Source: Escherichia phage CJY920. Taken from it: 64,000 bases of DNA. The position numbers and the translations under genes were made by a program. Positions 1,762-56,800 of this stretch are shown in pieces; position 1 is the first letter of the stretch, and each line of letters begins with the position of its first letter. The stretch is taken from sequence record PQ349265.1. One strand, written 5' to 3'. A model generated the notes under the pieces. That model saw nothing but the letters and a program-made list of their open reading frames with translations. It was not told the origin of the DNA and searched no databases.

Positions 1762-1922
1762 GTCATAATCTTGAAAAGGTAATCGAGCATAATGTAGCTC
1801 AGGAACGCGAGTCGTTCAAGGAATTCGTAGAAAAAATTTTTGAAGAAAATAACACAGACCAGTTTACAAATCAAGTGTCTGATGATATTATAATAAAGTC
1901 AACTAATTGAGTGGTATAGTTA

Positions 1923-7376: not shown

Positions 7377-7410
7377 TATTTATAAAGAAAAAGGGAACCC
7401 GAAGGCTCCC
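7377..7410 (-). promoter_or_regulatory. terminator hairpin after gene 35 followed by late promoter TATAAATA for gene 36
   Basis: Minus-strand GGGAGCC-UUCG-GGUUCCC then UUUUUCUU then TATAAATA (7377-84). Confidence 0.65.
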
Positions 7411-7415
7411 TCAAT

Positions 7416-8531
7416 TTAAACTTCTCTAAATTCTTGCCCAAACACTTTACCAGTTTTAGACGATGCTTGCGTAGGAAGTACCATTATATCCGGAGGTGAA
7501 GCAGATTCACAGACATAATTAACTCGAATACCATTGACGCCAAATTCAGCAGGTTTTGAAATTCCGCCATTTCTTGATACTTCAGAAAAGCTTAAATTTC
7601 TCATGCCGCCTTGACCAGCTTGAGCAGTTCTTTGTGCATATATTGTAAATCCTACTGCGTTTTCTGGAATAACTACATAATCTTCCTTTAATTCCCATGA
7701 CCCAGCTTGTCCAGTAAACTCAGCATGTGTTGAAGAAATATATCCATTCGATTCATCATAAAAACGGATAGATATATTTGTAGTTCCAAGCGCAAGTAAA
7801 TCGGCATCAGCATATAACTGTGCTTTAAGATAAAGAACATCGCCAGGAATTAAATTATAATCAGATAATTTACTTATCGCGGATGAAGTTGGTAAACGTG
7901 CAATTTCGTTATTAGTTCCACCAACCGCTGACATAAATTGCTCAACGCTTTCATATGTTCTTTTAGGAAATCCTGTAGCTCCAACGTCTTCTAAACTATC
8001 AAATACAACATCTAAAATAGTTTGATAATCATCTGTGCTTTTTCTATTGCTTAATTTAACATGTTCTAATGCAATAGCTCTTTTAGAAGAAGTGTAAAAA
8101 GCAGCATATGATACGTCAAATCTTGACAATATAAAATCAGATGGAAAAGCAGACGTTCCTGTGGCTCTTAGCCAAGATACTACCTCAGGAGGAAAATTAA
8201 CCTTTCCACTAGTTAATATAGCAACAAGTCTATTATTCGTCAAAGAGTTCATGAAACCAACAAAAGCAGCTGATGTAGTATCATTTGAAGTCGAAAAAGC
8301 ATATGACTTACTATCAACTAATGCTCCTGTAGAAGGGTCAAAAACTCTTAAATGAAGACCTGTATTAAATGTTTGGCTTCCGATAGGATTATCCTGAAAT
8401 TTGACATATGGTCCTGCTGTAGAAAGCGGGCAAGAACCCGCTATACTTATTTTGTATCTTACTGAATTACTTTCCGATAAAAATGGCGTTTGGACATATC
8501 CTTGTCCAAACTCTGCCATAAATTTTTCCAT
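7416..8531 (-). CDS. 35: gp35 long tail fibre hinge connector (371 aa)
   Basis: Size and position between 34 and 36. Confidence 0.85.
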   Translation of the reverse strand: MEKFMAEFGQGYVQTPFLSESNSVRYKISIAGSCPLSTAGPYVKFQDNPIGSQTFNTGLHLRVFDPSTGALVDSKSYAFSTSNDTTSAAFVGFMNSLTNNRLVAILTSGKVNFPPEVVSWLRATGTSAFPSDFILSRFDVSYAAFYTSSKRAIALEHVKLSNRKSTDDYQTILDVVFDSLEDVGATGFPKRTYESVEQFMSAVGGTNNEIARLPTSSAISKLSDYNLIPGDVLYLKAQLYADADLLALGTTNISIRFYDESNGYISSTHAEFTGQAGSWELKEDYVVIPENAVGFTIYAQRTAQAGQGGMRNLSFSEVSRNGGISKPAEFGVNGIRVNYVCESASPPDIMVLPTQASSKTGKVFGQEFREV

Positions 8532-8539
8532 AATACCTC

Positions 8540-11500
8540 TTATTCAACCCATTCAAATTTAACCGTTTTATTCACTGGGTCAGGAATAATGCGAACATTA
8601 CCAATTCGTAAGAAATCACGAATAGTAAGATTCCCCATTGTAGCATTATCAGATGGTAAAGCACCAATATCAGATGGTTGAGGAGGGTTACCTCCATCAA
8701 ATACCTGAACAAAACTTGACCAGGAGTTTTTGGTTTTCTGCCATGTGCGTGTCCAGCGAGTGGTGCGCGCTTCTGGAGTCGTTGGATAAGTAATCCAATC
8801 TTGGTAAAGCGAATCAAGTGTGTTACCAAACTGAGTTAATGTACCAGGAGATTTAACTTCTTCGCCACGTTCTAAGTATGGAAGTCCAGTCACTTCATTA
8901 GTTTTTTCAACCATTTTAAAATAACCCGGGAACTGGTTATAAGTAGCTGAATCATTAATGTCAATTGACCAGAATCCTACAGTATCAGATGTTGGCGCAC
9001 GGGTGTATAGGTCAGATGTTTTAGTACCTTGAGAACGAATTCTCGAGTTAACAGTTAAACCACCTGAATTTATAGTAGCACCTTTGGCAATGATTAAGCT
9101 TTCACCAATCGTTACTTGACCAGATGCATTATTAATAGCTAAAGGACGTAATCCATTAAATCCGCCAGTCTGATCGCCCGATGCAGTAAGCATAAAATAT
9201 GTGCTTCCGCCATCATTCCTGATAAAGAATCCATAATTACCATTTATTGCTCTGAAAGCATTTGCAGACTTGCTAATGAATCCACCATTGGCTGTAACTG
9301 AACTACCGAATGTTGCAACACCATTCACATTCATCAAACCGGAAGCGTTAACATTTATTGGCATTACAGTACCATTAATGCTAAACGCTATATTACCATC
9401 TTTATTACGTTGAGAATAAAAGTGATGAGATGTTTCATCGCCAACTTCAAACACGGTAGAACGAGTCGTATCCGAGCCGCCGTAAAACTGATTTCCCCAT
9501 ACTCTGATAGTCATCGTCTGTGCTGGGTTAGTTCCAGTTTGAGGTCCTTTTTCAAAAATCAGATGAGTTTCTGTACGAGTTTCTGTTCCAGAGTTAGAAA
9601 TAGTTAATGTACTATTTGCCGAAACTGAACCACCAAACGTAGCAGTACTAGATGATACAAGAGGGGCACTCAGATTCGTTTGTTGGGTTAAGGTTAGTGA
9701 ACCATTAACCGTCTGTGCAATATCCCTACGAATGAACTGAGATGAATCTAGACCATCCAGTAAATTTGTATCAGCAGCTTTTGCTTTTAACGGCAAATAA
9801 TTTGCTAATACACGGTTTAATTCATATGGTGATACCGCATAGCTATTTTTCTCATATGATTCTAATGGCTGTGTTGAACCTACCGTATCATTACCAACGA
9901 ATGTAATTGAACCAGATGAAGTTTTAACAAAACCTCTTATCGCAGTAGTAGCTGCCCAGGTAGGTTCACTCTGCACAATCCACTTTAAATTTTTTGGAGA
10001 TACAGCAGTATTTGCTGATGTTCCAGTCACAGTTTCAGACTGAGTCGCAACTTTAATAACACCTTCTTGCGATTCGGTAGATTTAGTACCTAAAAGCTTT
10101 TTAGGAGTTATCAAAACATTATCCAATGTTCCTGCAGCAGCTTCAACTTGTGTAGCTACACGAAGTGTACCACGCTGTGTCTCATTTGCTTCAAGAATAT
10201 TAAGGGTATAATGGTCCCAGAGAGTTCCTGATTCAACTAATCCAGATAGAGCAACAACAGAAGTACGATCAGTACTATTAAATCTAGTTTTAATTTTTAA
10301 TGGTGTAGAGATACGAGTATCGTCGACGCCTGCGTCGAATTCAACTTGAGTAGCAATTTCAGCTATACCACTTAAACTTTCAGTTGCTCTACGGTCATTT
10401 AAAGTTTTAGGAGTGACTGCACGAGTATAATCAGTCCCAGCATTAGTTTCTGCTTGCGTAGCAATTTCAATTAAACCAATTCTTCCATCAGTTGATGTCT
10501 TTTTATGTAACGTTTCTGGCGTTACAACCGCATTTGCCCATCCTTCTTGACTTTTTCCAGCAATTACTTCACTTTCAACTGCTAAAATTACTGCACCTTG
10601 TTGTGTTGGAGTAGCTTTATACTGATCCAAAGCTTTAGGCGAAACAACTAAATTATTAGTGTTTTTATTATAAACATTCGTACCATTTAATTCACGGCTA
10701 GAAGCTGGAGTAGCACCTGCAGTAGATACAAAAGTTACAATACCAGATAATGATTCAGAACCTTGACGAGCTTGAAGCTTTTTAGGAGTAATGATTGTAG
10801 TATCATCAGTACCTGCATTAGTTTCCTGTTGCGTAGCAATTTCAGCAACACCTCTGCGAGTTTCTGTAGCAGTTCTTTCATTTAGCTTTTTAGGAGTGAT
10901 GATAATATCATCAGCAAAAGAGAATGTGGTGTTCTGGTTCACTTGAGCGGTAGTTGCTATTCTTGCGATACCTCTGCGAGTTTCTGTAGCAGTACGGTTA
11001 GCTAATGTTTCTGGTGTAATTGCTAATTCTTTTTGCGGAGAATTTTCTAAATCGACGTTAGCTTGAGCTTGTGTAGCTAAAGCAATTACGCCTAATCTTG
11101 CTCTAGTAGAATCATTTAAAGAATCAACTCTTTCAACTGTTGGAACGTTTTGCTGTACTACCCAGTATTTTCCGTCAGAATCTTCTATATAAGCAAGTTG
11201 TAAAACTGGAACATAATTAGTTTCACCGTTAAAAACTAATTCTTGAACAGTCACCCATTCAGCTTCAGGCGGATATTCTGAACGTTTTGGGAATTGCAGC
11301 AATTGAACTGAAGAAGCAATTTTATCTTCATCAGCAGCTTTGATTTTAACTGTTTGTCCTTTTCTCATGTAATTCATGGAAATTTTAACAGTATCACCAA
11401 CAGAAATATCAGTCGGAAGCTGAAGTTCAATTGTCTGAGCTGTTCCGTTATTCGCACCAAATACCATAACTTCTTCATTTGGACGAATATTAGAATTAGT

Positions 11501-15840: not shown

Positions 15841-16068
15841 ATGGCTAAAATTGATATTGATGTTGTTGATTTTGAATATATTGAAGAAATTATTCGTAAT
15901 CGTTATCCTGAACTCCGTATTACAAGCGCACTAAATGATCCTAACTGCAATGTTTCAGTTGTTATTGAAGGTCCTTTAAATCGTCTTAAACAATTTATGG
16001 TTAATGAATATTGTGACGGTATGGATGCTGAAGATGTAGAATTTTACACTGGATTTATTGAGCAGTAA
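15841..16068 (+). CDS. hypothetical small early protein (75 aa from ATG 15841)
   Basis: ATG with AAAGAGGA SD; occupies the frd.x-like position between 32 and frd. Confidence 0.5.
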
Positions 16069-16112: not shown

Positions 16113-16490
16113 ATGTATACTGGTAGAAAGTATGAACTTGTTCCAAGACTTATTGATACATTTATTAATTATAGTCCACGTTCTAATTCATCAATAGTTA
16201 AAGCTATTCGAGATAATGGCGGATGGTTTGAAGTTAAAGAAGTTTCCGTCGCCAATGGATACAAAGCAGTAAAACACATTGAATGTGCAAATGGAAAGCA
16301 TTTTTATCTCAAAGATAGACTTTTAGAAATTTGCGAAGATGAATTTCATTGTTTTCGTGAGTATAAAGAACCGACTTCTGAAGATGAAGTCGAAGACAAG
16401 GTTTCTGGCGTAACAAAAATTCACTGCATTGTTGACGAAAACAATGTAGACGAAATCATTGAACTTTTGCGAAAAACTTTCAAAAAGTAG
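16113..16490 (+). CDS. hypothetical protein (125 aa)
   Basis: ATG with GAGGA SD; flanked by terminator-like hairpin and next promoter. Confidence 0.5.
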   Translation: MYTGRKYELVPRLIDTFINYSPRSNSSIVKAIRDNGGWFEVKEVSVANGYKAVKHIECANGKHFYLKDRLLEICEDEFHCFREYKEPTSEDEVEDKVSGVTKIHCIVDENNVDEIIELLRKTFKK

Positions 16491-16520
16491 TTTACAGAAG
16501 GGTAGTAGTGTGATACTATT
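16490..16520 (+). promoter_or_regulatory. early promoter
   Basis: GTTTAC at 16490 and TGATACTAT extended -10. Confidence 0.5.
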
Positions 16521-16544
16521 ACCCTATCAACTAAGGATAATAAA

Positions 16545-16787
16545 ATGAGATTACAACGTCAGAGCATTAAAGATTCAGAAGTTAGAGGTAAATGGTATTT
16601 TAATATCATCGGTAAAGACGCTGAACTTGTTGAAAAAGCTGAACATCTTTTACGTGATATGGGATGGGAAGATGAATGTGATGGATGCCCTCTTTATGAG
16701 GATGGAGAAAGCGCAGGATTCTGGATTTACCATTCTGACGTTGAACAGTTTAAAGCTGATTGGAAAATTGTGAAAAAGTCTGTTTAA
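16545..16787 (+). CDS. hypothetical protein (80 aa)
   Basis: ATG with AAGGA SD. Confidence 0.5.
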   Translation: MRLQRQSIKDSEVRGKWYFNIIGKDAELVEKAEHLLRDMGWEDECDGCPLYEDGESAGFWIYHSDVEQFKADWKIVKKSV

Positions 16788-25173: not shown

Positions 25174-26758
<1,585 letters not shown>

Positions 26759-26761
26759 GCT

Positions 26762-26814
26762 GTTTACAAGTTCCTCATGTTGTGTTATAGTAGTCTTACT
26801 GACATAACATGAGG
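26762..26814 (+). promoter_or_regulatory. early promoter with embedded 9-bp inverted repeat (copy A), upstream of alc
   Basis: GTTTAC 26762-67, extended -10 TGTTATAGT; arms CCTCATGTT (26773-81) and AACATGAGG (26806-14), the latter overlapping the alc SD GAGGA. Confidence 0.6.
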
Positions 26815-26822
26815 ACTTTATG

Positions 26823-27326
26823 ATGGATTTGCAGCTTATTACTACTGAGATGGTCGTTGAAGCATACGGTGATACTACAGATGGGATTTCTGTGTTTAAA
26901 GGAAATCGTCGAGTTGGATATATCACCGATCTTAAGAAAGATTTAGCTAAGCAAGTCAAGCGGAAAACGACCATTAAAGAATATCGAAATCGTCGTCTTG
27001 AGCAAGCCCGTGATATGCTTCCTGATGCAGTTGAGGAGATGAAAGTCTTTTTAGAAAATCAGCTTGCGAAATATGATTGTGATGTGTTCATTAATCAGAC
27101 TCAACCTAATGTTCACATTAATAGTTGTAAATGTTACATCATCGTTAATCCTTTGACGGGAAAACATCGTCTTGGAATTAGTAATCCAAATCGTAGTGCA
27201 TCAGATATGGCAGAAGATGTTGAGGCATGCTTTAAAATTTCTAAATCTCCGGCTGAACATCACATTTTAATTAACGGTCTTTCTCAAGACGATATTGTAG
27301 AGGTTATTAAAACTTTATGCATGTAA
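26823..27326 (+). CDS. alc: Alc, transcription termination on cytosine-containing DNA (167 aa)
   Basis: 167 aa; position between rnlA and the spanin genes as in T4. Confidence 0.8.
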   Translation: MDLQLITTEMVVEAYGDTTDGISVFKGNRRVGYITDLKKDLAKQVKRKTTIKEYRNRRLEQARDMLPDAVEEMKVFLENQLAKYDCDVFINQTQPNVHINSCKCYIIVNPLTGKHRLGISNPNRSASDMAEDVEACFKISKSPAEHHILINGLSQDDIVEVIKTLCM

Positions 27327-29808: not shown

Positions 29809-30084
29809 ATGTTTCCGACTTATTCTAAAATCGTAGAAGTAGTGTTTAGCCAAATTATCGCTAATAACATGTTTGAAAAGCTTGATAACGCAGCTGAGCT
29901 TCGAATTCATGCTCAAGTGACTCATGTATTGAACACTTTGCTTCCAGACCAGGTGGATTCTATTGCAATTACGCTGTATCCAGGTTCCGCGCATATCATT
30001 GTCGTATTCGGTCTTGATGCTGAGCTAGTCATCAAAGGCGATATTCGCTTTGAATCACAGACATCAGAATTCAAAGCAATTTAA
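29809..30084 (+). CDS. hypothetical small protein (91 aa)
   Basis: First ATG of ORF whose track start is GTG 29803. Confidence 0.45.
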   Translation: MFPTYSKIVEVVFSQIIANNMFEKLDNAAELRIHAQVTHVLNTLLPDQVDSIAITLYPGSAHIIVVFGLDAELVIKGDIRFESQTSEFKAI

Positions 30085-30086
30085 TG

Positions 30087-30116
30087 GTTTACTTTATGGT
30101 AGAGTTGTGATATTAT
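30087..30116 (+). promoter_or_regulatory. early promoter
   Basis: GTTTAC 30087-92, TGATATTAT extended -10. Confidence 0.5.
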
Positions 30117-30147
30117 AGCTCTACCAAAACAAATGAGGAAAAACAAA

Positions 30148-30402
30148 ATGCTAAGTGAAAAACCAATTACTGTTAAAGAATTCCAAGAAAAAGTTAAACT
30201 ATTTGCTCAGGAATTGGTAAATAAGGTTTCTGAACGATTTCCTGAAACATCGGTTCGTGTTATTACCGAGACTCCTCGTTCAGTATTAGTAATTGTGAAT
30301 CCAGGTGATGGTGACCAAATAACACATCTCAAATTGGATTTTGATGGATTAGTTGAAGCACAAAGGGTGTATGGCGACTATGATGAATTTAACTTGATAT
30401 AA
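30148..30402 (+). CDS. hypothetical small protein (84 aa)
   Basis: ATG 30148 with GAGGA SD. Confidence 0.45.
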   Translation: MLSEKPITVKEFQEKVKLFAQELVNKVSERFPETSVRVITETPRSVLVIVNPGDGDQITHLKLDFDGLVEAQRVYGDYDEFNLI

Positions 30403-36405: not shown

Positions 36406-36590
36406 AAGCTTACTTAGAAACAATTGTCATTGCTCAAAAAGAAGGTGGAGATGTTTCTACTTCTGTATCACAAGTCATTCTCGAATTTGTAGATGCATAT
36501 GCTTATAATAAATTTACAGAAACATTTGATGCCTATGAAAAAGGACCAAAGTTTGAAATATATCGTACTCTCTTACCACTAGATTACTAA
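36402..36590 (+). CDS. hypothetical small protein (62 aa)
   Basis: ATG overlapping ligase stop (ATGA). Confidence 0.45.
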   Translation: MKAYLETIVIAQKEGGDVSTSVSQVILEFVDAYAYNKFTETFDAYEKGPKFEIYRTLLPLDY

Positions 36591-36619
36591 AGGCCTTCGG
36601 GCCTTTAATTTTATAAATA
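36591..36619 (+). promoter_or_regulatory. terminator hairpin followed by late promoter TATAAATA for alt
   Basis: AGGCC-TTCG-GGCCT hairpin 36591-36604, then TATAAATA at 36612-19, 24 nt upstream of the alt ATG. Confidence 0.65.
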
Positions 36620-36642
36620 GAATAAACACTAGAGAGGATATG

Positions 36643-38736
36643 ATGGAACTCATTACAGAATTATTTGACGAAGATACTACTCTTCCGATTACAAACTTAA
36701 ATCCAAAGAAGAAAATACCACAAATTTTTTCAGTTCATGTTGATGACGCAATTGAACAACCAGGCTTTCGTTTATGTACCTATACATCTGGAGGTGATAC
36801 TAACCGTGATTTAAAGATGGGCGATAAAATGATGCATATTGTTCCTTTTACATTAACTGCTAAAGGTTCAATTGCTAAATTAAAAGGTCTCGGTCCAAGC
36901 CCAATTAATTATATCAATTCAGTTTTTACTGTTGCAATGCAGACGATGCGTCAGTATAAAATTGATGCCTGTATGCTCCGTATTCTTAAGTCTAAAACTG
37001 CCGGTCAAGCTCGACAAATTCAAGTTATTGCTGATAGACTTATCCGTAGTCGTTCAGGTGGCAGATACGTCCTTCTTAAGGAACTCTGGGATTATGATAA
37101 AAAGTATGCATATATTCTTATACATCGCAAAAATGTATCACTAGAAGACATTCCAGGAGTTCCGGAAATTAGTACCGAGCTCTTTACTAAAGTTGAATCG
37201 AAAGTCGGCGATGTTTATATCAATAAAGATACTGGAGCTCAAGTAACTAAAAATGAGGCAATTGCAGCATCTATTGCACAAGAAAACGATAAACGTTCTG
37301 ACCAAGCTGTAATCGTTAAAGTTAAAATTTCCCGTAGAGCAATTGCACAAAGTCAGTCATTGGAATCTTCTAGATTTGAAAGTGAATTATTCCAGAAGTA
37401 TGAATCTACTGCAGCTAATTTCAATAAACCTGCTACAGCTCCTTTAATTCCCGAAGCAGAAGAAATGAAACTTGGAATTAATTCAATAGCTTCTAAAACT
37501 AAGGCAGCAAAAATTATTGCCGAAGGAACCGCAAATGAACTTCATTATGATTATAAATTCTTTTCAAAAAGTGAGGTTAATGAAGTTTCTGAAAAAATTA
37601 AAGATGTAATTCTTAATGCGATTAAAAATGAACCGACTACTTCAATAAAATGTTTAGAGAAGTATGCAGCAGCTATTAATAAATTCTTTGAAGAATATAA
37701 AGATACTTGGCTTGATAAACATAATAAAACCCGTAAAGGACAGCCAGATGAAGTCTGGGAAGAAATGACTAAAAATTCCTGGAACGCAGCAAAAACTAAA
37801 TTCCTCAAAAGAATGATTTACAGCTTTTCTGGAATTGGTGCAGGTCCAATGATTGATATTACTATTGCCCGTGATGGTTCTAAATATACTCCATCACAAA
37901 AGCGCGGCATTAGAGAGTATTGTGGTTCAGGATATACTGACATCAATAATCTTCTTTTAGGACGCTACAATCCAGAACGATATGATGTAATGAGTGAAAA
38001 AGAAATTGAATCTGCTATAAATAACTTAGATTCAGCTTTTGAAAATGGTGACCGTATACCGGAAGGAATTACAGTTTATCGTGCACAAAGTATGACTGCT
38101 CCTATATACGAAGCACTAGTTAAAAATAAAGTGTTCTATTTCAGAAATTTTGTATCTACTTCTTTAACTCCTATCATTTTTGGACGTTTTGGAATTACAC
38201 ATGCTGGTATTGGTCTTTTAGAACCAGAAGCTCGTAATGAATTGACAGTTGATAAAAATGAAGAAGGAATAACTATTAATCCAAACGAAATAAGAGCGTA
38301 TAAAGAAAATCCTGAATACGTTAAAGTTCAAATAGGATGGGCAATTGATGGAGCTCATAAAGTTAATGTTGTATATCCAGGAAGTCTCGGAATAGCAACA
38401 GAAGCTGAAGTTATTCTACCACGCGGATTGATGGTCAAAGTTAATAAAATAACTGATGCTTCTAATAATGACGGAACAACATCTAATAACACAAAACTCA
38501 TTCAAGCTGAAGTTATGACTACAGAAGAACTCACCGAATCGGTAATTTATGACGGTGACAGTCTAATGGAAACTGGTGAAGTAGTTGCAATGACAGGTGA
38601 TATTGAAATAGAAGACAGAGTTGACTTTGCATCATTTGTTTCATCAAATGTTAAACAAAAAGTAGAATCATCTCTTGGAATTATTGCGTCTTGCATAGAT
38701 ATTACAAACATGCCTTACAAGTTCGTTCAAGGATAA
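36643..38736 (+). CDS. alt: Alt ADP-ribosyltransferase (capsid-packaged), 697 aa
   Basis: N-terminus MELITELFD...; ART R-S-ExE signature (VYRAQS, FVSTSL, EAEVILPRG); downstream of ligase as in T4. Confidence 0.85.
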   Translation: MELITELFDEDTTLPITNLNPKKKIPQIFSVHVDDAIEQPGFRLCTYTSGGDTNRDLKMGDKMMHIVPFTLTAKGSIAKLKGLGPSPINYINSVFTVAMQTMRQYKIDACMLRILKSKTAGQARQIQVIADRLIRSRSGGRYVLLKELWDYDKKYAYILIHRKNVSLEDIPGVPEISTELFTKVESKVGDVYINKDTGAQVTKNEAIAASIAQENDKRSDQAVIVKVKISRRAIAQSQSLESSRFESELFQKYESTAANFNKPATAPLIPEAEEMKLGINSIASKTKAAKIIAEGTANELHYDYKFFSKSEVNEVSEKIKDVILNAIKNEPTTSIKCLEKYAAAINKFFEEYKDTWLDKHNKTRKGQPDEVWEEMTKNSWNAAKTKFLKRMIYSFSGIGAGPMIDITIARDGSKYTPSQKRGIREYCGSGYTDINNLLLGRYNPERYDVMSEKEIESAINNLDSAFENGDRIPEGITVYRAQSMTAPIYEALVKNKVFYFRNFVSTSLTPIIFGRFGITHAGIGLLEPEARNELTVDKNEEGITINPNEIRAYKENPEYVKVQIGWAIDGAHKVNVVYPGSLGIATEAEVILPRGLMVKVNKITDASNNDGTTSNNTKLIQAEVMTTEELTESVIYDGDSLMETGEVVAMTGDIEIEDRVDFASFVSSNVKQKVESSLGIIASCIDITNMPYKFVQG

Positions 38737-38739
38737 ATC

Positions 38740-40797
38740 ATGGAACTTATTACAGAATTATTTGACGGCGCTTCGGCGCCGGTTGTTAACTTAAATCCTA
38801 AGCATAAAATACCTCAAATTTTTGCTATTCAAGCCGGTGAAGAAAGCGTGCTTCCTGGATTTAGATTTTGTACATACACCTCTGGCGGTGATACAAATAA
38901 AAATGTTAAGCCAGGCGATAAAATGATGCATATCGTAATGATAGGTGTTAATGAGAAACTATCATTAGTTAAACTTAAAAACTTGGGTGGAAATCCAATT
39001 GGTGTCATTAATGCGGTTTTTGATACTGCTCTTCAAACAATGAAACAGTATAAAATTGACGCATGCCTATTCCGCGTGCTAAAGAGTAAAACAAACGGTG
39101 CAGCTCGTCAAATGCAAGTTATTGCCGACCGTTTAGTACGTACTAAAGGAGCAGGTCGATATGTTCTTTTAAAGGAAATCTGGGACTATGATAAAAAGTA
39201 TGCATATATTATGGTTTACCGTAAAAATGCCAATTTAGAAGACATTCCAGGTGTACCTCCTATTTCAACTGAGTTATTCACAAAAGTTGAATCAAAGGTT
39301 GGTGATGTTTATGTAGACGTTAAAACAGGTAATGCTGTTCCTAAAGCTGTTGCTGTTGCTGCTTCTATTGCTTTAGAAAATGATAAGCGTACGGATCAAG
39401 CTGTTATTCAGAAAACTAAAATTAGTCGTCGATTAGCAGCACAAGCTCAATATTCTACTGTCGATGCTTCACTTCAGGGTGATAGCTTCGCTGCTAAGAA
39501 ATATCAAGAGTTTGAATCTAAAGTTCCGGTATATAAAGCAGAAGGACCAATGAACTCCGGTGTTATTCAAGTTGGTTCAAACTTCAGCAAAGGAGCTATC
39601 GGTGGTATGAGGAGTGCTTCTCGTTTTAAATCTAATGATTATGAATTAGAAAGCTTCCGAAATCATATTGCATTGGCTCATGCACGTTTACGTGATCCAT
39701 CTATCAAGTTACAGAGCGATATAACATATCAAGGTTCTCAGGAATATTTAAAGAATAAAGAATTTTTTGATTATAAAACTGATAAAATTTTAAGCGATCT
39801 TGCTGACATTAATATTTCTAATAGCTTTGATGTTATTAAGAAAATTGTCAATGATTTAGTTAAAGGTTCTAAAGCCACACCAGATGAAAAGGTAGCTATT
39901 GTTCAATTTGTCATGAATGGCGTTTATAAATTGATTAATGAATCTGCTTCTCAAGCGTATGAATACGCAAGCACCGAAGTAACTCCAAAAGGATTAACTC
40001 AGGCTGAGTCTGATGTAATTGAAGATTATTGTGCAGATTCATATGTTGAAATGAACTCGTTCCTTTTAGGTAAACCAGATTCTACTCGTGAAGAATATAT
40101 GGAACGAGCTATTAAACACATCGAGACAATGGATTCTGCCTTTGCCAAAGGATCAGTTCTTCCTCCAGGAACTACACTTTATCGTGGACAAGAAGTTACC
40201 TTTAAAACTTTACGTCATAATATTGAAAATAAAATGTTCTATTTCAAGAACTTCGTATCCACATCGCTTAAACCAAATATCTTCGGTGAGTATGGTAAAA
40301 ACTATATGGCTCTAGATGATTTCAGTGCAGTATTTTCTGGTGAAGGAGAAGGTTCAGTTGATGCTGAAGATTTAATGCATATGGGTAGTCATTCTGCTTA
40401 TGCGAATGAAGATGCTGAAACTAGCGTAGGTATGGTAATTAAAGGAGCTGAGCGAATCAAAGTTATCGTTCCAGGACATTTATCAGGATTTCCATCAGAA
40501 GCTGAAGTTATTCTACCGCGTGGAATTTTGCTGAAGATTAATAAAGTGAGTACGTACATGATGAAAGAAACTGCTTATAATAAGTATCTAATCGAAGGCA
40601 CAATCGTTCCTCCTTCTGAACAATTAGAAGAATCGGTATATGATGGCGACCATCTAATGGAAACTGGTGAAGTTCGTCCAATGGCTGGATTTAATCAATT
40701 CCTTGTAGAAGAATCAAAAGAAGAGGAAAACGAAGTTTCTCAAATCTTGGCTTCTTTGGTTAACATCAACGGAATGTCTAAAAAGTTCAAGATGTAG
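38740..40797 (+). CDS. Alt-like ADP-ribosyltransferase paralog (685 aa)
   Basis: Collinear with upstream alt at roughly half identity by eye; conserved MELITELFD N-terminus, LYRGQE / FVSTSL / EAEVILPRG motifs; SD AAGGA inside the end of the upstream gene. Confidence 0.8.
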   Translation: MELITELFDGASAPVVNLNPKHKIPQIFAIQAGEESVLPGFRFCTYTSGGDTNKNVKPGDKMMHIVMIGVNEKLSLVKLKNLGGNPIGVINAVFDTALQTMKQYKIDACLFRVLKSKTNGAARQMQVIADRLVRTKGAGRYVLLKEIWDYDKKYAYIMVYRKNANLEDIPGVPPISTELFTKVESKVGDVYVDVKTGNAVPKAVAVAASIALENDKRTDQAVIQKTKISRRLAAQAQYSTVDASLQGDSFAAKKYQEFESKVPVYKAEGPMNSGVIQVGSNFSKGAIGGMRSASRFKSNDYELESFRNHIALAHARLRDPSIKLQSDITYQGSQEYLKNKEFFDYKTDKILSDLADINISNSFDVIKKIVNDLVKGSKATPDEKVAIVQFVMNGVYKLINESASQAYEYASTEVTPKGLTQAESDVIEDYCADSYVEMNSFLLGKPDSTREEYMERAIKHIETMDSAFAKGSVLPPGTTLYRGQEVTFKTLRHNIENKMFYFKNFVSTSLKPNIFGEYGKNYMALDDFSAVFSGEGEGSVDAEDLMHMGSHSAYANEDAETSVGMVIKGAERIKVIVPGHLSGFPSEAEVILPRGILLKINKVSTYMMKETAYNKYLIEGTIVPPSEQLEESVYDGDHLMETGEVRPMAGFNQFLVEESKEEENEVSQILASLVNINGMSKKFKM

Positions 40798-40849
40798 TTT
40801 ACAAGTCCCTCGTGTTGTGTTATAATAATCTTACTGACATAACATGAGG
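40797..40849 (+). promoter_or_regulatory. early promoter with embedded inverted repeat (copy B)
   Basis: GTTTAC 40797-802, TGTTATAAT; arms CCTCGTGTT (40808-16) and AACATGAGG (40841-49); about 50 bp near-identical to 26762-26814. Confidence 0.6.
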
Positions 40850-40857
40850 AACACAAA

Positions 40858-41148
40858 ATGAAATCTTCTTTGCGCTTTTTAGGCCAAGAACTTGTAGTTG
40901 AAGGCGTTATTCCTGCTGATAACACTTTTAATGAAGCAGTTTATGATGAATTTATCAAAATTTTTGGAACAGATAAAAAGTTCGGAATTTTTCCTTCTGA
41001 AAATTTTTCAAAGCCAGAGCAGACTGAAAGCATTTTCCAGGGTGTAGTAACAGGTAAATTTGAGTCAGAAGCTCCGGTAAAAATTGAAGTTTATATTGAA
41101 GATAGTTTAGTTGCTTCAGTTTCCGCTTTTATTTCATTCCGTAAATAA
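40858..41148 (+). CDS. hypothetical protein (96 aa)
   Basis: ATG 8 nt after GAGGA; followed by a bidirectional terminator. Confidence 0.5.
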   Translation: MKSSLRFLGQELVVEGVIPADNTFNEAVYDEFIKIFGTDKKFGIFPSENFSKPEQTESIFQGVVTGKFESEAPVKIEVYIEDSLVASVSAFISFRK

Positions 41149-41154
41149 AAACAT

Positions 41155-41172
41155 GGGGACCTTTCGGTCCCC
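41155..41172. terminator. bidirectional terminator hairpin between the 96-aa ORF (+) and gene 54 (-)
   Basis: GGGGACC-TTTC-GGTCCCC with flanking T/A runs. Confidence 0.7.
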
Positions 41173-41176
41173 ATTG

Positions 41177-42142
41177 TTATATTGCTCCTAATATTTTACT
41201 TTGCGAGTTGACAATTCCCGTCATAGTATTAATGTTTGAAATGCTTCCTGCAGTTCCTCCTAATCTACTAAGTCGTGAAAGCGAATTAGATAGTCCAGTA
41301 ACACCTCCACTATTTCCGAGAACGCTTTGAATGCCATTTATAGCAGCAGATTCAAGCCACTCAAGCGCAGCTTGTCTATCAACCGCTCCAGCCTGCATGA
41401 CTCTATACGCAAAAGTAACATCAAATGTAGTTATTTGGTTATCTCCATCATATGATAACTCAGGAGCGCTCACTGACACTGGAATGCATCCGGTGAACAT
41501 CACAGCAGTATGAGGTAATCCATTACGAGCATGAAGATTAACCTGAATATCTGCCTCGACATCTTGTGGCAAAGCACGCAGTCCAGTTACTGGGTCTTGA
41601 ACAGCATTAACCCAGTCTTGCATTGCACGATAATTACATGCTTCTGAATCCATTCTAAATGAAATAACCAAAGGGTCTAATTCTCTCCCAGTTATACGAA
41701 TATTAGGAGAATTATAGTTCCAGTCAGTTTCATAGGATAATCTATTCTCTGGCATTTTTACTGAATATATCATCAATCCAGATGAGTTATATGCCATATT
41801 AAAGAAGTCAATTAAATATGTACCAACTGTAAATGAGCCCAATAAACTTTGAACTGTACGTTGACTCATGGCACCAATAAGATATTTACTAACTCCTGAT
41901 TTTCTTATCAGTTTTTGTGTGCCAGCAGTAATTAGCGTGGTAATTCCCTGATTAATATCGACTTGAGTCAATCCTAACCAATCTGAATTTAAACCCAAGT
42001 TATTATAAGAAAAGTTGCTAATTGAACTTATCAACGAAGAGCTTTTAGTTGATGGAGTTGTCGCAAAAACGCAGCTAAACATATTATTACGTTGGAAATC
42101 TGCGTTTATTGCTTGATTATTAAATTCCTCTAAAGAATACAT
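41177..42142 (-). CDS. 54: gp54 baseplate tail-tube initiator (321 aa)
   Basis: Size and order 54-48-29-28-27-51 as in T4. Confidence 0.8.
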   Translation of the reverse strand: MYSLEEFNNQAINADFQRNNMFSCVFATTPSTKSSSLISSISNFSYNNLGLNSDWLGLTQVDINQGITTLITAGTQKLIRKSGVSKYLIGAMSQRTVQSLLGSFTVGTYLIDFFNMAYNSSGLMIYSVKMPENRLSYETDWNYNSPNIRITGRELDPLVISFRMDSEACNYRAMQDWVNAVQDPVTGLRALPQDVEADIQVNLHARNGLPHTAVMFTGCIPVSVSAPELSYDGDNQITTFDVTFAYRVMQAGAVDRQAALEWLESAAINGIQSVLGNSGGVTGLSNSLSRLSRLGGTAGSISNINTMTGIVNSQSKILGAI

Positions 42143-56088: not shown

Positions 56089-56751
56089 ATGAAATATTTA
56101 ATATATCAAATTACTAATATCATCAATGGAAAAATTTACATCGGAGCTCATGCTACTCTTGACGAAAACGATGGTTATATGGGTTCTGGCGTAAACATCA
56201 AAAAATCCATCAAAAAATATGGTATTCATAACTTTAAAAAAGAAATTCTTTATTCTTTCTCCTCATCTGAGGAGATGTATAAAATGGAAGCTTTACTAGT
56301 CAATGAGGAATTCGTTATGAGAACTGATACTTATAATGCTGCTATTGGTGGTAGAGGAAATCCAGTTATAGTTCATTTGCAAGATCCTTCATATCGTAAT
56401 ATGTTATCAATGCGAACAAAAGAAGGAATGACTGCGGAAGTTAAACGAAAAATATCAAAGGCAAAAACAGGCGTTAAGCAATCTGATGAAACTATCGCGA
56501 AGCGAGTTAAAGGGCGCAATGAATATTATAAAACACATGTTCATCCACGAAAAAATAAACCTATATCGATTTCACATCGTAAAGCTATTTCTGAAAAACT
56601 TAGCGGTATTAAAAAATTTATTCCAATATGTATAAAGGGTGTCAAATTTGATAATCCTGATTACGCAGCGGAGCATTTTAAAGTTAGTCCTAAAACTATT
56701 CGCAATTGGATAAATGCGGATGATATGCCTGATTGCTATCGTATAAAATAG
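56089..56751 (+). CDS. segD: SegD-like GIY-YIG homing endonuclease (220 aa)
   Basis: From ATG 56089: MKYLIYQITNIINGKIYIGAH...; sits between genes 24 and 23, antisense to the late genes. Confidence 0.75.
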   Translation: MKYLIYQITNIINGKIYIGAHATLDENDGYMGSGVNIKKSIKKYGIHNFKKEILYSFSSSEEMYKMEALLVNEEFVMRTDTYNAAIGGRGNPVIVHLQDPSYRNMLSMRTKEGMTAEVKRKISKAKTGVKQSDETIAKRVKGRNEYYKTHVHPRKNKPISISHRKAISEKLSGIKKFIPICIKGVKFDNPDYAAEHFKVSPKTIRNWINADDMPDCYRIK

Positions 56752-56756
56752 AAAAA

Positions 56757-56774
56757 GGGAACCCGAAGGTTCCC
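56757..56774. terminator. bidirectional terminator hairpin between segD (+) and gene 23 (-)
   Basis: GGGAACC-CGAA-GGTTCCC perfect hairpin. Confidence 0.7.
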
Positions 56775-56800
56775 TAAAATTGTGCTTCTATCGTTAGAGA

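Follow-up and report, generated by a model that had tools for sequence, protein, structure and literature searches.

Early, middle and late genes of phage T4 lie head to tail with few terminators between them, so that transcripts often enter genes of another temporal class. A known remedy, documented for late-expressed genes, is a hairpin that masks the ribosome-binding site (RBS) and has a promoter nested within it; hairpins of this kind, sequestering the RBS and containing an internal promoter, were reportedly described in T4 by McPheeters et al. in 1986. They are established for genes e, soc, 49 and I-TevI (PMC3014915, section 29). A second group of elements, the PeSLs, was described by Arbiol et al. 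2010 (PMC2839356) and Comeau et al. 2014 (PMC4122927) as stem-loops with terminator or attenuator activity; in the account of PMC4122927 these stem-loops are often of the GGGG..CCCC type in RB49 and phi1, and in PST/T4 are situated immediately 5' of the promoter. A third set of conserved elements, in which a T4-type early promoter is accompanied by an AT-rich stem-loop, borders the internal-protein (IP) genes of T-even phages (Repoila et al. 1994, as cited in PMC2839356). According to PMC2839356 the IP-gene elements are repeated in one genome, with a proposed role in the shuffling of small early genes; their loci differ from those treated here.

The window analysed, a stretch of 64,000 nucleotides from Escherichia phage CJY920 (PQ349265.1), represents a Tequatrovirus (T4-like) genome. 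It contains two copies of a promoter-hairpin cassette, one situated between rnlA and alc (copy A) and one separating the second alt paralog from alt.-3 (copy B). The copies and the surrounding genes and signals are as follows:

25598-26758: rnlA, the gene upstream of copy A
26762-26815, plus strand: copy A, preceding alc, with arms at 26772-26785 and 26802-26815, the -10 hexamer TATAGT and the Shine-Dalgarno (SD) sequence GAGG at 26811-26814
26820-27326, plus strand: alc open reading frame (Pfam ALC), the gene that copy A would gate
36612-36619, plus strand: late promoter of the T4 type, TATAAATA, which precedes alt and is the putative source of read-through, located after a terminator hairpin (36590-36605)
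36640-40797, plus strand: two tandem alt paralogs of 698 and 685 aa (ADP-ribosyltransferase), whose predicted late transcript enters copy B
40797-40850, plus strand: copy B of the cassette, from the -35 through the SD, identical to copy A at 50 of 54 bases
40858-41148, plus strand: alt.-3 open reading frame, 96 aa (Pfam DUF5498), the gene that copy B would gate
41153-41174, bidirectional: intrinsic terminator separating alt.-3 from gene 54, the first one reached after copy B

Copies A and B constitute a 54-nt direct repeat with 93% identity, for which approximately 0 matches are expected by chance; the near-identity over about 50 bp that had been noticed in the preliminary description was thereby upheld. 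The four differences (B/A) fall at 40807 (C/T), 40812 (G/A), 40825 (A/G) and 40828 (A/G), and homology ends directly after the SD, where GAGGA is followed by A in copy B and by C in copy A. A 58-nt search permitting up to 3 mismatches returned copy B itself as the sole match, with 0 expected from shuffles. The pair is universal in Tequatrovirus: the cassette was found at 997 places in 499 phage records, all with at least 90% identity, and every complete genome examined carried two copies. A third place indicated for phage G28 by the record search was absent from the 12 kb around its alt locus.

In copy B, a promoter and an inverted repeat are interleaved:

40798-40803, plus strand: -35 hexamer TTTACA (11/12 promoter match, 17-nt spacer)
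40808-40820, plus strand: left (5') arm CCTCGTGTTGTGT, which fills the promoter spacer and begins with the anti-SD CCTC
40818-40826, plus strand: extended -10, TGtTATAAT, with TG before the second hexamer, which lies in the loop (40821-40826)
40837-40849, plus strand: right (3') arm ACATAACATGAGG, which holds the SD of alt.-3
40846-40849, plus strand: SD sequence GAGG of alt.-3, in the stem, 8 nt 5' of the ATG and annotated as an RBS in phage Ge15

The hairpin thus encloses an early promoter of the sigma-70 type (TTTACA-17-TATAAT with TG), and neither a late TATAAATA promoter nor a middle one; the T4 early consensus GTTTAC begins at 40797, the last base of the TAG stop codon of the alt paralog (40795-40797). 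On the usual 7-nt spacing, transcription is predicted to start at approximately 40833 (A), in the hairpin loop. The arms given in the preliminary description, CCTCGTGTT (40808-40816) and AACATGAGG (40841-40849), were confirmed, and the stem proved to be longer than described there, pairing 40808-40820 with 40837-40849 over 13 bp that include two G.U pairs. Stem length is 13-14 bp across copies A and B; a T-to-C change at 40807, the second left-arm difference, removes the outermost U-A pair in copy B.

As RNA, the 49-nt hairpin of copy B folded with a predicted energy of -21.6 kcal/mol (z = -6.9; none of 200 shuffles folded as well) and the same segment of copy A with -23.5 kcal/mol (z = -6.1), fold z-scores ranging from -5 to -7 overall. 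The promoter match and this fold support the earlier view that the element combines a promoter with an RNA-level hairpin. The left arm is carried only by RNA arriving from upstream, and the right arm by all transcripts. RNA beginning at the predicted start site of copy B was unstructured (-2.2 kcal/mol, z = +0.2 (0.24)); to open the SD of copy B, read-through RNA was predicted to need 11.5 kcal/mol and nested-promoter RNA 1.2 kcal/mol, the corresponding values for copy A being 9.8 and 1.6 kcal/mol. Rfam yielded no match above the gathering score, only sub-threshold chance matches to generic hairpin miRNA models, and assignment to a known RNA family was rejected.

From the sequence, the fold, the covariation described below and the genomic context, we infer a start site within the loop, a gate set by transcript origin and repression of translation; we estimate a probability of roughly 60% that copy B is a self-insulating early-expression cassette and a duplicate of the one at alc. 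A strong T4 early promoter would here be nested in an inverted repeat, with the spacer as its 5' arm and the SD of alt.-3 in its 3' arm. RNA begun at the nested promoter would possess the 3' arm only, leaving the SD open for Alt.-3 to be made early; late RNA of the alt operon, begun from TATAAATA at 36612 and reading through to 41153, would carry both arms and fold (approximately -21 kcal/mol) such that the SD is buried and alt.-3 is not translated from it. The preliminary description had proposed that the element gates the 96-aa reading frame against late read-through from alt. The position fits, with a late promoter upstream and no terminator-like site in a terminator scan of 40300-40797, upstream of copy B; the SD is predicted to be closed on read-through RNA and open on nested-promoter RNA, and the repression itself would be what this model predicts. 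In T4 omics data, alt.-3 and alc are classed as early at both the RNA and the protein level, and the alt and rnlA proteins as late (PMC9697503, supplements). Extended Alt.-3 variants defeat the CmdTAC defence (PMC11618068). The literature checked, which left aside older T4 papers and the PeSL figures, contained no description of, and no experiment on, the alc or alt.-3 hairpin.

The cassette resembles the hairpins of e, soc, 49 and I-TevI in three respects: the SD lies in a helix on RNA started upstream (GAGG in the stem, with 11.5 kcal/mol needed to open it); the promoter lies in the hairpin and would give RNA lacking the 5' arm (predicted start site, -2.2 kcal/mol), so that transcript origin would set translation; and the upstream promoter is of another temporal class (late, 36612-36619), with predicted read-through. 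In those genes, however, the nested promoter is late or middle and early or middle read-through is silenced, which defers expression of the gene to the late period, whereas the nested promoter of the cassette is early and the silenced RNA would be that of late alt or of the upstream early/middle rnlA unit. The cassette would thus work like this family with its timing inverted, as a variant both of that family's logic and of the PeSL cassettes.

The cassette belongs to a PeSL-like class, which the preliminary description had overlooked together with the apparent derivation of copy B from alc. Like the PeSLs as described in PMC2839356 and PMC4122927, it unites an early promoter, a stem-loop, an SD and a start codon in one intergenic unit, is repeated within the genome, adjoins a plastic locus (the alt paralog region) and shows apparent exchange between sites. 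This likeness suggests another explanation, namely that the stem-loop serves mainly to attenuate or terminate transcription arriving from upstream, or to shield the 3' end of the preceding mRNA, with the repeat serving as a recombination linker and SD masking being incidental. The PeSL definition, in which the loop lies between or overlaps the -35 and -10, would accommodate the cassette, and a PeSL stem-loop lowered reporter expression in the manner of a strong terminator (PMC2839356, PMC4122927). The 54 nt shared by the copies are also enough for T4 recombination, which requires <50 bp of homology; cassette types seem to have been exchanged between alc and alt.-3 in Tequatrovirus and Mosigvirus, and the early promoters at 16491 and 30088 of the window have hairpins that enclose the -10 and leave the SD unmasked. 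The stem of the cassette, unlike that of the PeSLs, spans the spacer, the -10 and the start site and ends on the SD, with an anti-SD that covaries with it. Neither hairpin is followed by a U-run, and neither was called by the terminator scan, which does detect 41153; an intrinsic-terminator reading of the hairpins was rejected on these grounds. Attenuation independent of a U-run may nonetheless occur. A 3' arm that ends on the SD in seven genera, with covariation between anti-SD and SD, is needed neither by a terminator nor by an end-protecting hairpin, and a recombination role accounts for the origin of copy B but not for the maintained pairing. We consider it unlikely that termination, attenuation or end protection is the main function and SD masking incidental.

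In nearly all lineages the stop codon of the upstream gene sits directly before the -35 or overlaps it (TAGTTTACA), with 7-14 nt separating it from the left arm, an arrangement that would suit translational coupling; the hairpin on late RNA would then be opened only by ribosomes finishing the alt paralog, giving low, alt-tied late synthesis of Alt.-3. A terminating ribosome unwinds roughly 5-7 nt, and the left arm begins beyond this reach, 11 nt (copy B) or 14 nt (copy A) past the stop. The Alt.-3 protein of T4 is, furthermore, classed as early rather than late, and coupling appears improbable.

The preliminary description had seen a sign of selection on the hairpin in the A-to-G change at 40812, in the left arm of copy B, which it termed compensatory. 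The change does still permit a G.U pair, but the term does not hold; it is a one-sided, wobble-compatible transition, polymorphic at both sites, of which G is the majority allele. Nor is it a fixed difference between A and B, since T4, whose own two copies match at 53 of 54 bases, has G in both, and among distinct contigs the G:A ratio is approximately 8:2 at alc and approximately 14:1 at alt.-3 (the pattern scans for natural variants comprised 10 stretches from IMG/VR and 10 from metagenome contigs). By itself, the comparison of A with B carries almost no statistical weight. All interior arm substitutions seen in Tequatrovirus were wobble-preserving transitions; those that arose independently in the arms number no more than about 5-6, a count that weighs against the model. 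Arm changes that break pairing without compensation, which by the preliminary description would refute its claim, were few and marginal: a C-to-A change at pair 2, near the stem base and one of these 5-6, breaks the pair in a ZN18-like genome, and STP4-a has two stem mismatches. Diversity of the element within Tequatrovirus equals that of flanking coding DNA (pi of approximately 0.03-0.04), which counts against special conservation, and conservation was dropped as evidence for the element. Both this diversity and the uninformative A-B comparison would be expected if there were no selected structure, only a recent duplication with a strong early-promoter consensus and arm complementarity as a passenger. 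We give this very little credence in view of the fold z-scores of -5 to -7, the limitation of substitutions to wobble-compatible transitions and the covariation at alc across genera.

The alc site displayed the same order in seven genera (Tequatrovirus, Gelderlandvirus, Karamvirus, a Klebsiella phage, Dhakavirus, Marfavirus and Kanagawavirus), namely -35, anti-SD arm, -10 in the loop and SD arm; the stem sequences differ, and in all seven the SD marks the precise end of the 3' arm. In an alignment of the arms alone, 90.6% of cells paired, a percentage inflated by choosing the stem register of each sequence to maximise pairing, and 9 of the 14 pairs changed on both sides. Full-element MAFFT alignments were rejected for pair counts; they aligned the promoter boxes but not the arms, because stem registers differ between genera. 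The covariation score was 0.529; shuffles gave 0.234, none of the 500 reaching the observed value, and slid registers gave at most 0.123. Arms paired better within their own lineage than with the arms of other lineages (2 of 20,000 permutations), and the anti-SD tracked the SD by lineage (CCTC/GAGG, CTCC/GGAG, CCCC/GGGG). SD masking was absent at alc in Mosigvirus and Gaprivervirus. At the level of sequence comparison, then, the real support for hairpin selection is the covariation at alc together with the wobble-preserving changes within Tequatrovirus, and not the A-B comparison on which the claim had been built.

An inverted repeat flanking the promoter -10 might also act as DNA, influencing the promoter or recombination by forming a cruciform or a palindrome to which a protein binds, and the authors of PMC2839356 speculated that DNA-binding proteins target PeSL stem-loops. 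What is conserved between genera, however, is complementarity rather than sequence. Interior cells of the alc arms contained approximately 19 G.U versus approximately 3 A.C combinations, and the G.U pairs gave the sense strand a folding advantage of 5-7 kcal/mol over the antisense strand; this excess and this advantage point to sense-strand RNA and not duplex DNA, and make a DNA-level role highly improbable.

Among the eight further lineages sampled, the promoter of alt.-3 carries a different, short hairpin within its spacer, and the SD is left unmasked. The biology of alt.-3 thus does not depend on SD masking, and copy B has the appearance of an alc cassette transplanted in Tequatrovirus alone, the direction being suggested by this distribution. 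An ancestral alt.-3 promoter with a short spacer hairpin may have been replaced in Tequatrovirus by the duplicate from alc, the likely route being homologous exchange with the -35 (GTTTACAA) and SD region (ACATGAGGA) common to both sites as its boundaries. The neighbouring alt paralog region is variable and is reduced in T4 to alt.-1/alt.-2. Cassette types at alc and alt.-3 are distributed as if swapped, both in Tequatrovirus and in Mosigvirus; neither a recombination junction nor a mini-circle was observed. A broader reading, which we advance tentatively and at somewhat less than even odds, is that the SD-masking hairpin with its nested early promoter, gating by transcript origin, forms a conserved, portable insulation module of the Tevenvirinae, maintained by covariation at alc across at least seven genera and moved between alc and alt.-3, one way in Tequatrovirus and, in Mosigvirus, with the cassette of the other type. 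If so, a gene would gain strict early-only translation by receiving the cassette, whatever transcription enters it.

The hairpin-nested early promoter of alt.-3 is a real and conserved variant of a control device known in T4, through which gating by transcript origin would be exerted. It suggests a reverse use of the remedy documented for late-expressed genes, in which early proteins, here the host-transcription terminator Alc and Alt.-3, are kept from being made on later or upstream transcripts, by a device that travels as a cassette of approximately 54 bp. RNA of alt.-3 or alc present late in infection would accordingly not need to mean that these genes are translated. The cassette offers a compact model of temporal insulation and a natural part for phage engineering.

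The genome in the window is that of a Tequatrovirus (T4-like) phage, oriented against the standard T4 map. A query of 1 kb taken around copy B matched ~500 T4-like phages at 90-98% identity, the features beneath it in those phages being Alt, Alt.-3 and gp54. Local gene order was set by Pfam calls on open reading frames (ORFs):

25598-26758, RnlA (Pfam/ORF)
26762-26815, copy A, before alc
26820-27326, Alc (Pfam/ORF)
36590-36605, terminator hairpin after alt.1
36612-19, T4 late promoter motif TATAAATA, after the terminator hairpin and 20 nt before alt
36640-38736 and 38740-40797, two alt paralogs, ADP-ribosyltransferase (Pfam/ORF)
40797-40850, copy B, before alt.-3
40858-41148, Alt.-3 = DUF5498 (Pfam/ORF)
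41153-41174, bidirectional terminator, found by the terminator scan
from 41177, gene 54, opposite strand

Copy B was correctly placed in the preliminary description after the alt paralogs and before a 96-aa ORF, which is alt.-3. Alt.-3 is non-essential, and C-terminally extended variants escape CmdTAC (PMC11618068). The T4 order is alt, the remnants alt.-1/alt.-2, then alt.-3; the second alt copy is reduced there to these fragments, and in the window both paralogs (36640-40797) are full-length and in tandem (698 and 685 aa, DNA patches 72-94% identical).

The near-identity claimed for the two copies was borne out: a repeat search of the window returned a 54-nt direct repeat of 93% identity, 26762-26815 against 40797-40850 (chance expectation about 0), with four B/A differences (40807 C/T, 40812 G/A, 40825 A/G, 40828 A/G). 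The inverted-repeat arms are likewise present, in a helix longer than described; 40808-40820 pairs with 40837-40849 over 13 bp, two G.U pairs included. Folded as RNA, the 49-nt hairpin segment reaches -21.6 kcal/mol in copy B (z = -6.9) and -23.5 kcal/mol in copy A (z = -6.1), no shuffle doing as well in either case; no Rfam family matches either hairpin. The element is real and ubiquitous in Tequatrovirus, occurring at 997 places in 499 records and exactly twice in every complete genome sampled. Among the listed records only NC_054916.1 (phage vB_EcoM-G28) has three matching places, the third of them more than 6 kb away from the alt locus. Two other repeats were seen in the window: a 40-nt repeat at two distant sites (7386-7425 and 56750-56789, 85% identity) containing a terminator-like hairpin, GGGAACCCGAAGG(C/T)TCCC, and a 68-nt unit present five times in 10044-11020 (60-74% identity; irregular start-to-start spacings of 306, 108, 375 and 120 nt), probably a protein domain that recurs within a structural gene.

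The pairing of promoter with inverted repeat also held. Judged by its sequence, copy B is a model example of a T4 early promoter (TTTACA at 40798-803 and TATAAT at 40821-26 after TG, with 17 nt of spacer between them; 11/12 matches); copy A, with TATAGT, has 10/12. The left arm of copy B fills the spacer, the -10 lies in the loop, and the Shine-Dalgarno (SD) sequence GAGG (40846-49), 8 nt before the ATG, closes the right arm. The predicted start, near 40833 (the usual ~7 nt past the -10), falls 5' of the right arm; RNA from there lacks the left arm and has almost no predicted structure (-2.2 kcal/mol, z = +0.2). Ensemble costs of SD opening were computed for RNA arriving from upstream with both arms, and for the promoter's own transcript:

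Predicted cost of SD opening
Copy B (alt.-3): read-through RNA 11.5 kcal/mol; promoter's own transcript 1.2 kcal/mol
Copy A (alc): read-through RNA 9.8 kcal/mol; promoter's own transcript 1.6 kcal/mol

Gating of translation by transcript origin is the best explanation of the element, with a probability of about 0.6; translational coupling to the preceding gene seems rather improbable. Two more early promoters in the window, at 16483-16545 and 30080-30152, have their -10 within a 12-13 bp hairpin (GGGTAGTAGTG..TACTATTACCC; GGTAGAGYT..AGCTCTACC); there the SD is outside the stem, a PeSL-like (promoter-early stem-loop) form without SD masking.

The left-arm A-to-G change had been proposed as a compensatory difference between the copies. 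It does keep G.U pairing, but is one-sided (A-U to G.U) and so not compensatory, nor is it fixed between copies: the T4 alc and alt.-3 copies, alike at 53/54 bases, both carry G, and G:A among the distinct contigs and records read is ~8:2 at alc and 14:1 at alt.-3. When uncompensated arm mutations were sought in related phages, every interior substitution within Tequatrovirus kept pairing through wobble (G/A in pair 6; C>T in pair 5, two genomes; right-arm A>G in pair 9; right-arm C>T in pair 13), and a single C>A near the stem base broke a pair. By our estimate the significance of this pattern is no more than modest (P about 0.04, assuming that a neutral change keeps the pair with a chance of ~0.4). 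Diversity within the element (pi 0.03-0.04) is the same as in the coding DNA beside it, so that conservation alone is uninformative.

Covariation at homologous sites, the suggested check, was found 5' of alc, where seven lineages share a layout with differing stem sequences: Tequatrovirus, Gelderlandvirus (STP4-a and two IMG/VR genomes), Karamvirus UFV01, Klebsiella phage TNG87, Dhakavirus IME341, Marfavirus EI, and Kanagawavirus CIP9 and Entb_45. Each has GTTTACA, a left arm opening with the anti-SD, the -10 in the loop, and a right arm closing with the SD 5-9 nt from the ATG. In an arms-only alignment 90.6% of cells were paired, a figure inflated, unlike the double changes, by picking each register for maximal pairing; 9 of 14 pairs had changed on both sides. 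The covariation score was 0.529 against 0.234 in shuffles (reached by 0/500); slid registers gave at most 0.123. Each left arm fits its own right arm far better than others' (2/20,000 permutations), and the anti-SD follows the SD type (CCTC/GAGG, CTCC/GGAG, CCCC/GGGG). The flagged pair (G-C in Gelderlandvirus and Marfavirus, A-U in four lineages, G.U or A-U in Tequatrovirus) behaves, on this alignment, as an intermediate in a covarying pair. The element is very probably functional at the RNA level, and we consider a passenger structure very unlikely. A palindrome acting in DNA is equally improbable, since the stem interior holds far more G.U than A.C cells and the fold of the sense RNA is 5-7 kcal/mol more stable than that of the antisense, which points to sense-strand RNA. 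In Gaprivervirus (VR25, L039 ~800-1110; also the stretches L013, L014 and L017), rnlA and alc are separated by an inserted 77-aa ORF; before it stands, in place of the SD-masking hairpin, the classic PeSL form, a terminator-like GGGG..CCCC hairpin that overlaps the -35.

An early promoter also abuts the alt stop codon before alt.-3 in the eight other lineages sampled (Dhakavirus, Mosigvirus, Marfavirus, Citrobacter phage Ursula, Kanagawavirus, Gaprivervirus, Gelderlandvirus, Karamvirus), all with the SD unmasked. Seven carry a 4-6 bp hairpin wholly within the spacer, with loop (A)TGGAA or AAGGAA, and stems differing by compensatory changes (CCACAT/ATGTGG, ACACAT/ATGTGT, TCCAC/GTGGA, GCAC/GTGC, CATCC/GGATG, ACACC/GGTGT); Kanagawavirus phage 305 has no clear one at alt.-3. 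The short hairpin's locations in relatives' DNA were as follows:

Short-hairpin cassette before alt.-3
L040 ~445-500; L041, L042, L043, L060 and L061; L039 (Gaprivervirus VR25) 15940-16000

The purine-rich, SD-like loop is intriguing, and Mosigvirus alc (L048 ~243-300) carries this cassette type. The Tequatrovirus alc element is clearly orthologous to those of other genera (e.g. TCCCCATTTTGTTGTGTTAAGAT vs TCCTCATGTTGTGTTATAGT), the long hairpin occurs at alt.-3 only in Tequatrovirus among the lineages sampled, and the exact limits of A-to-B homology are the shared -35 and the shared SD region; from this we infer that the alc cassette was transplanted to give copy B.

PeSLs (early promoter, stem-loop, SD and start) are repeated near plastic loci (PMC2839356, PMC4122927), and the cassette fits this definition, repetition and setting included. 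The same papers interpret the stem-loops as terminators and, for PST/T4, draw them upstream of the promoter; the terminator scan gave no U-run or terminator call for either hairpin here. A PeSL attenuator or recombination linker is a less likely reading, though the likeliest of the alternatives. Transcript-origin gating has the logic of T4 e, soc, 49 and I-TevI, whose SD is sequestered on long RNA and whose late promoter inside the hairpin yields translatable RNA (PMC3014915): SD sequestration is predicted and a promoter is nested in the hairpin. One defining feature differs, however; the nested promoter is early here, so that the timing would be inverted. A literature search, with key older papers beyond its reach, found no paper describing the alc or alt.-3 sites.

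No terminator-like site was found 5' of copy B within 40300-41400, the nearby stretch scanned, the first downstream being at 41153, so that late alt RNA is expected to continue through alt.-3. At 25577-25607 (T4, L062 ~1790-1830, minus strand), 5' of rnlA, a MotA-box-like TGCTT, a hairpin CCACA-TGGAG-TGTGG and TACTAT form a candidate middle promoter, its short spacer hairpin being of the kind seen before alt.-3 in other lineages; an rnlA promoter is absent from the T4 middle promoters listed as mapped in 2010. In published T4 time-course omics, alt.-3 and alc fall in the early class for both RNA and protein, Alt is a late protein, and RnlA combines early RNA with late protein (PMC9697503, text and supplements 4 and 6). 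By these classes, copies A and B each sit where the gene of a late-accumulating product runs into an early-only gene.
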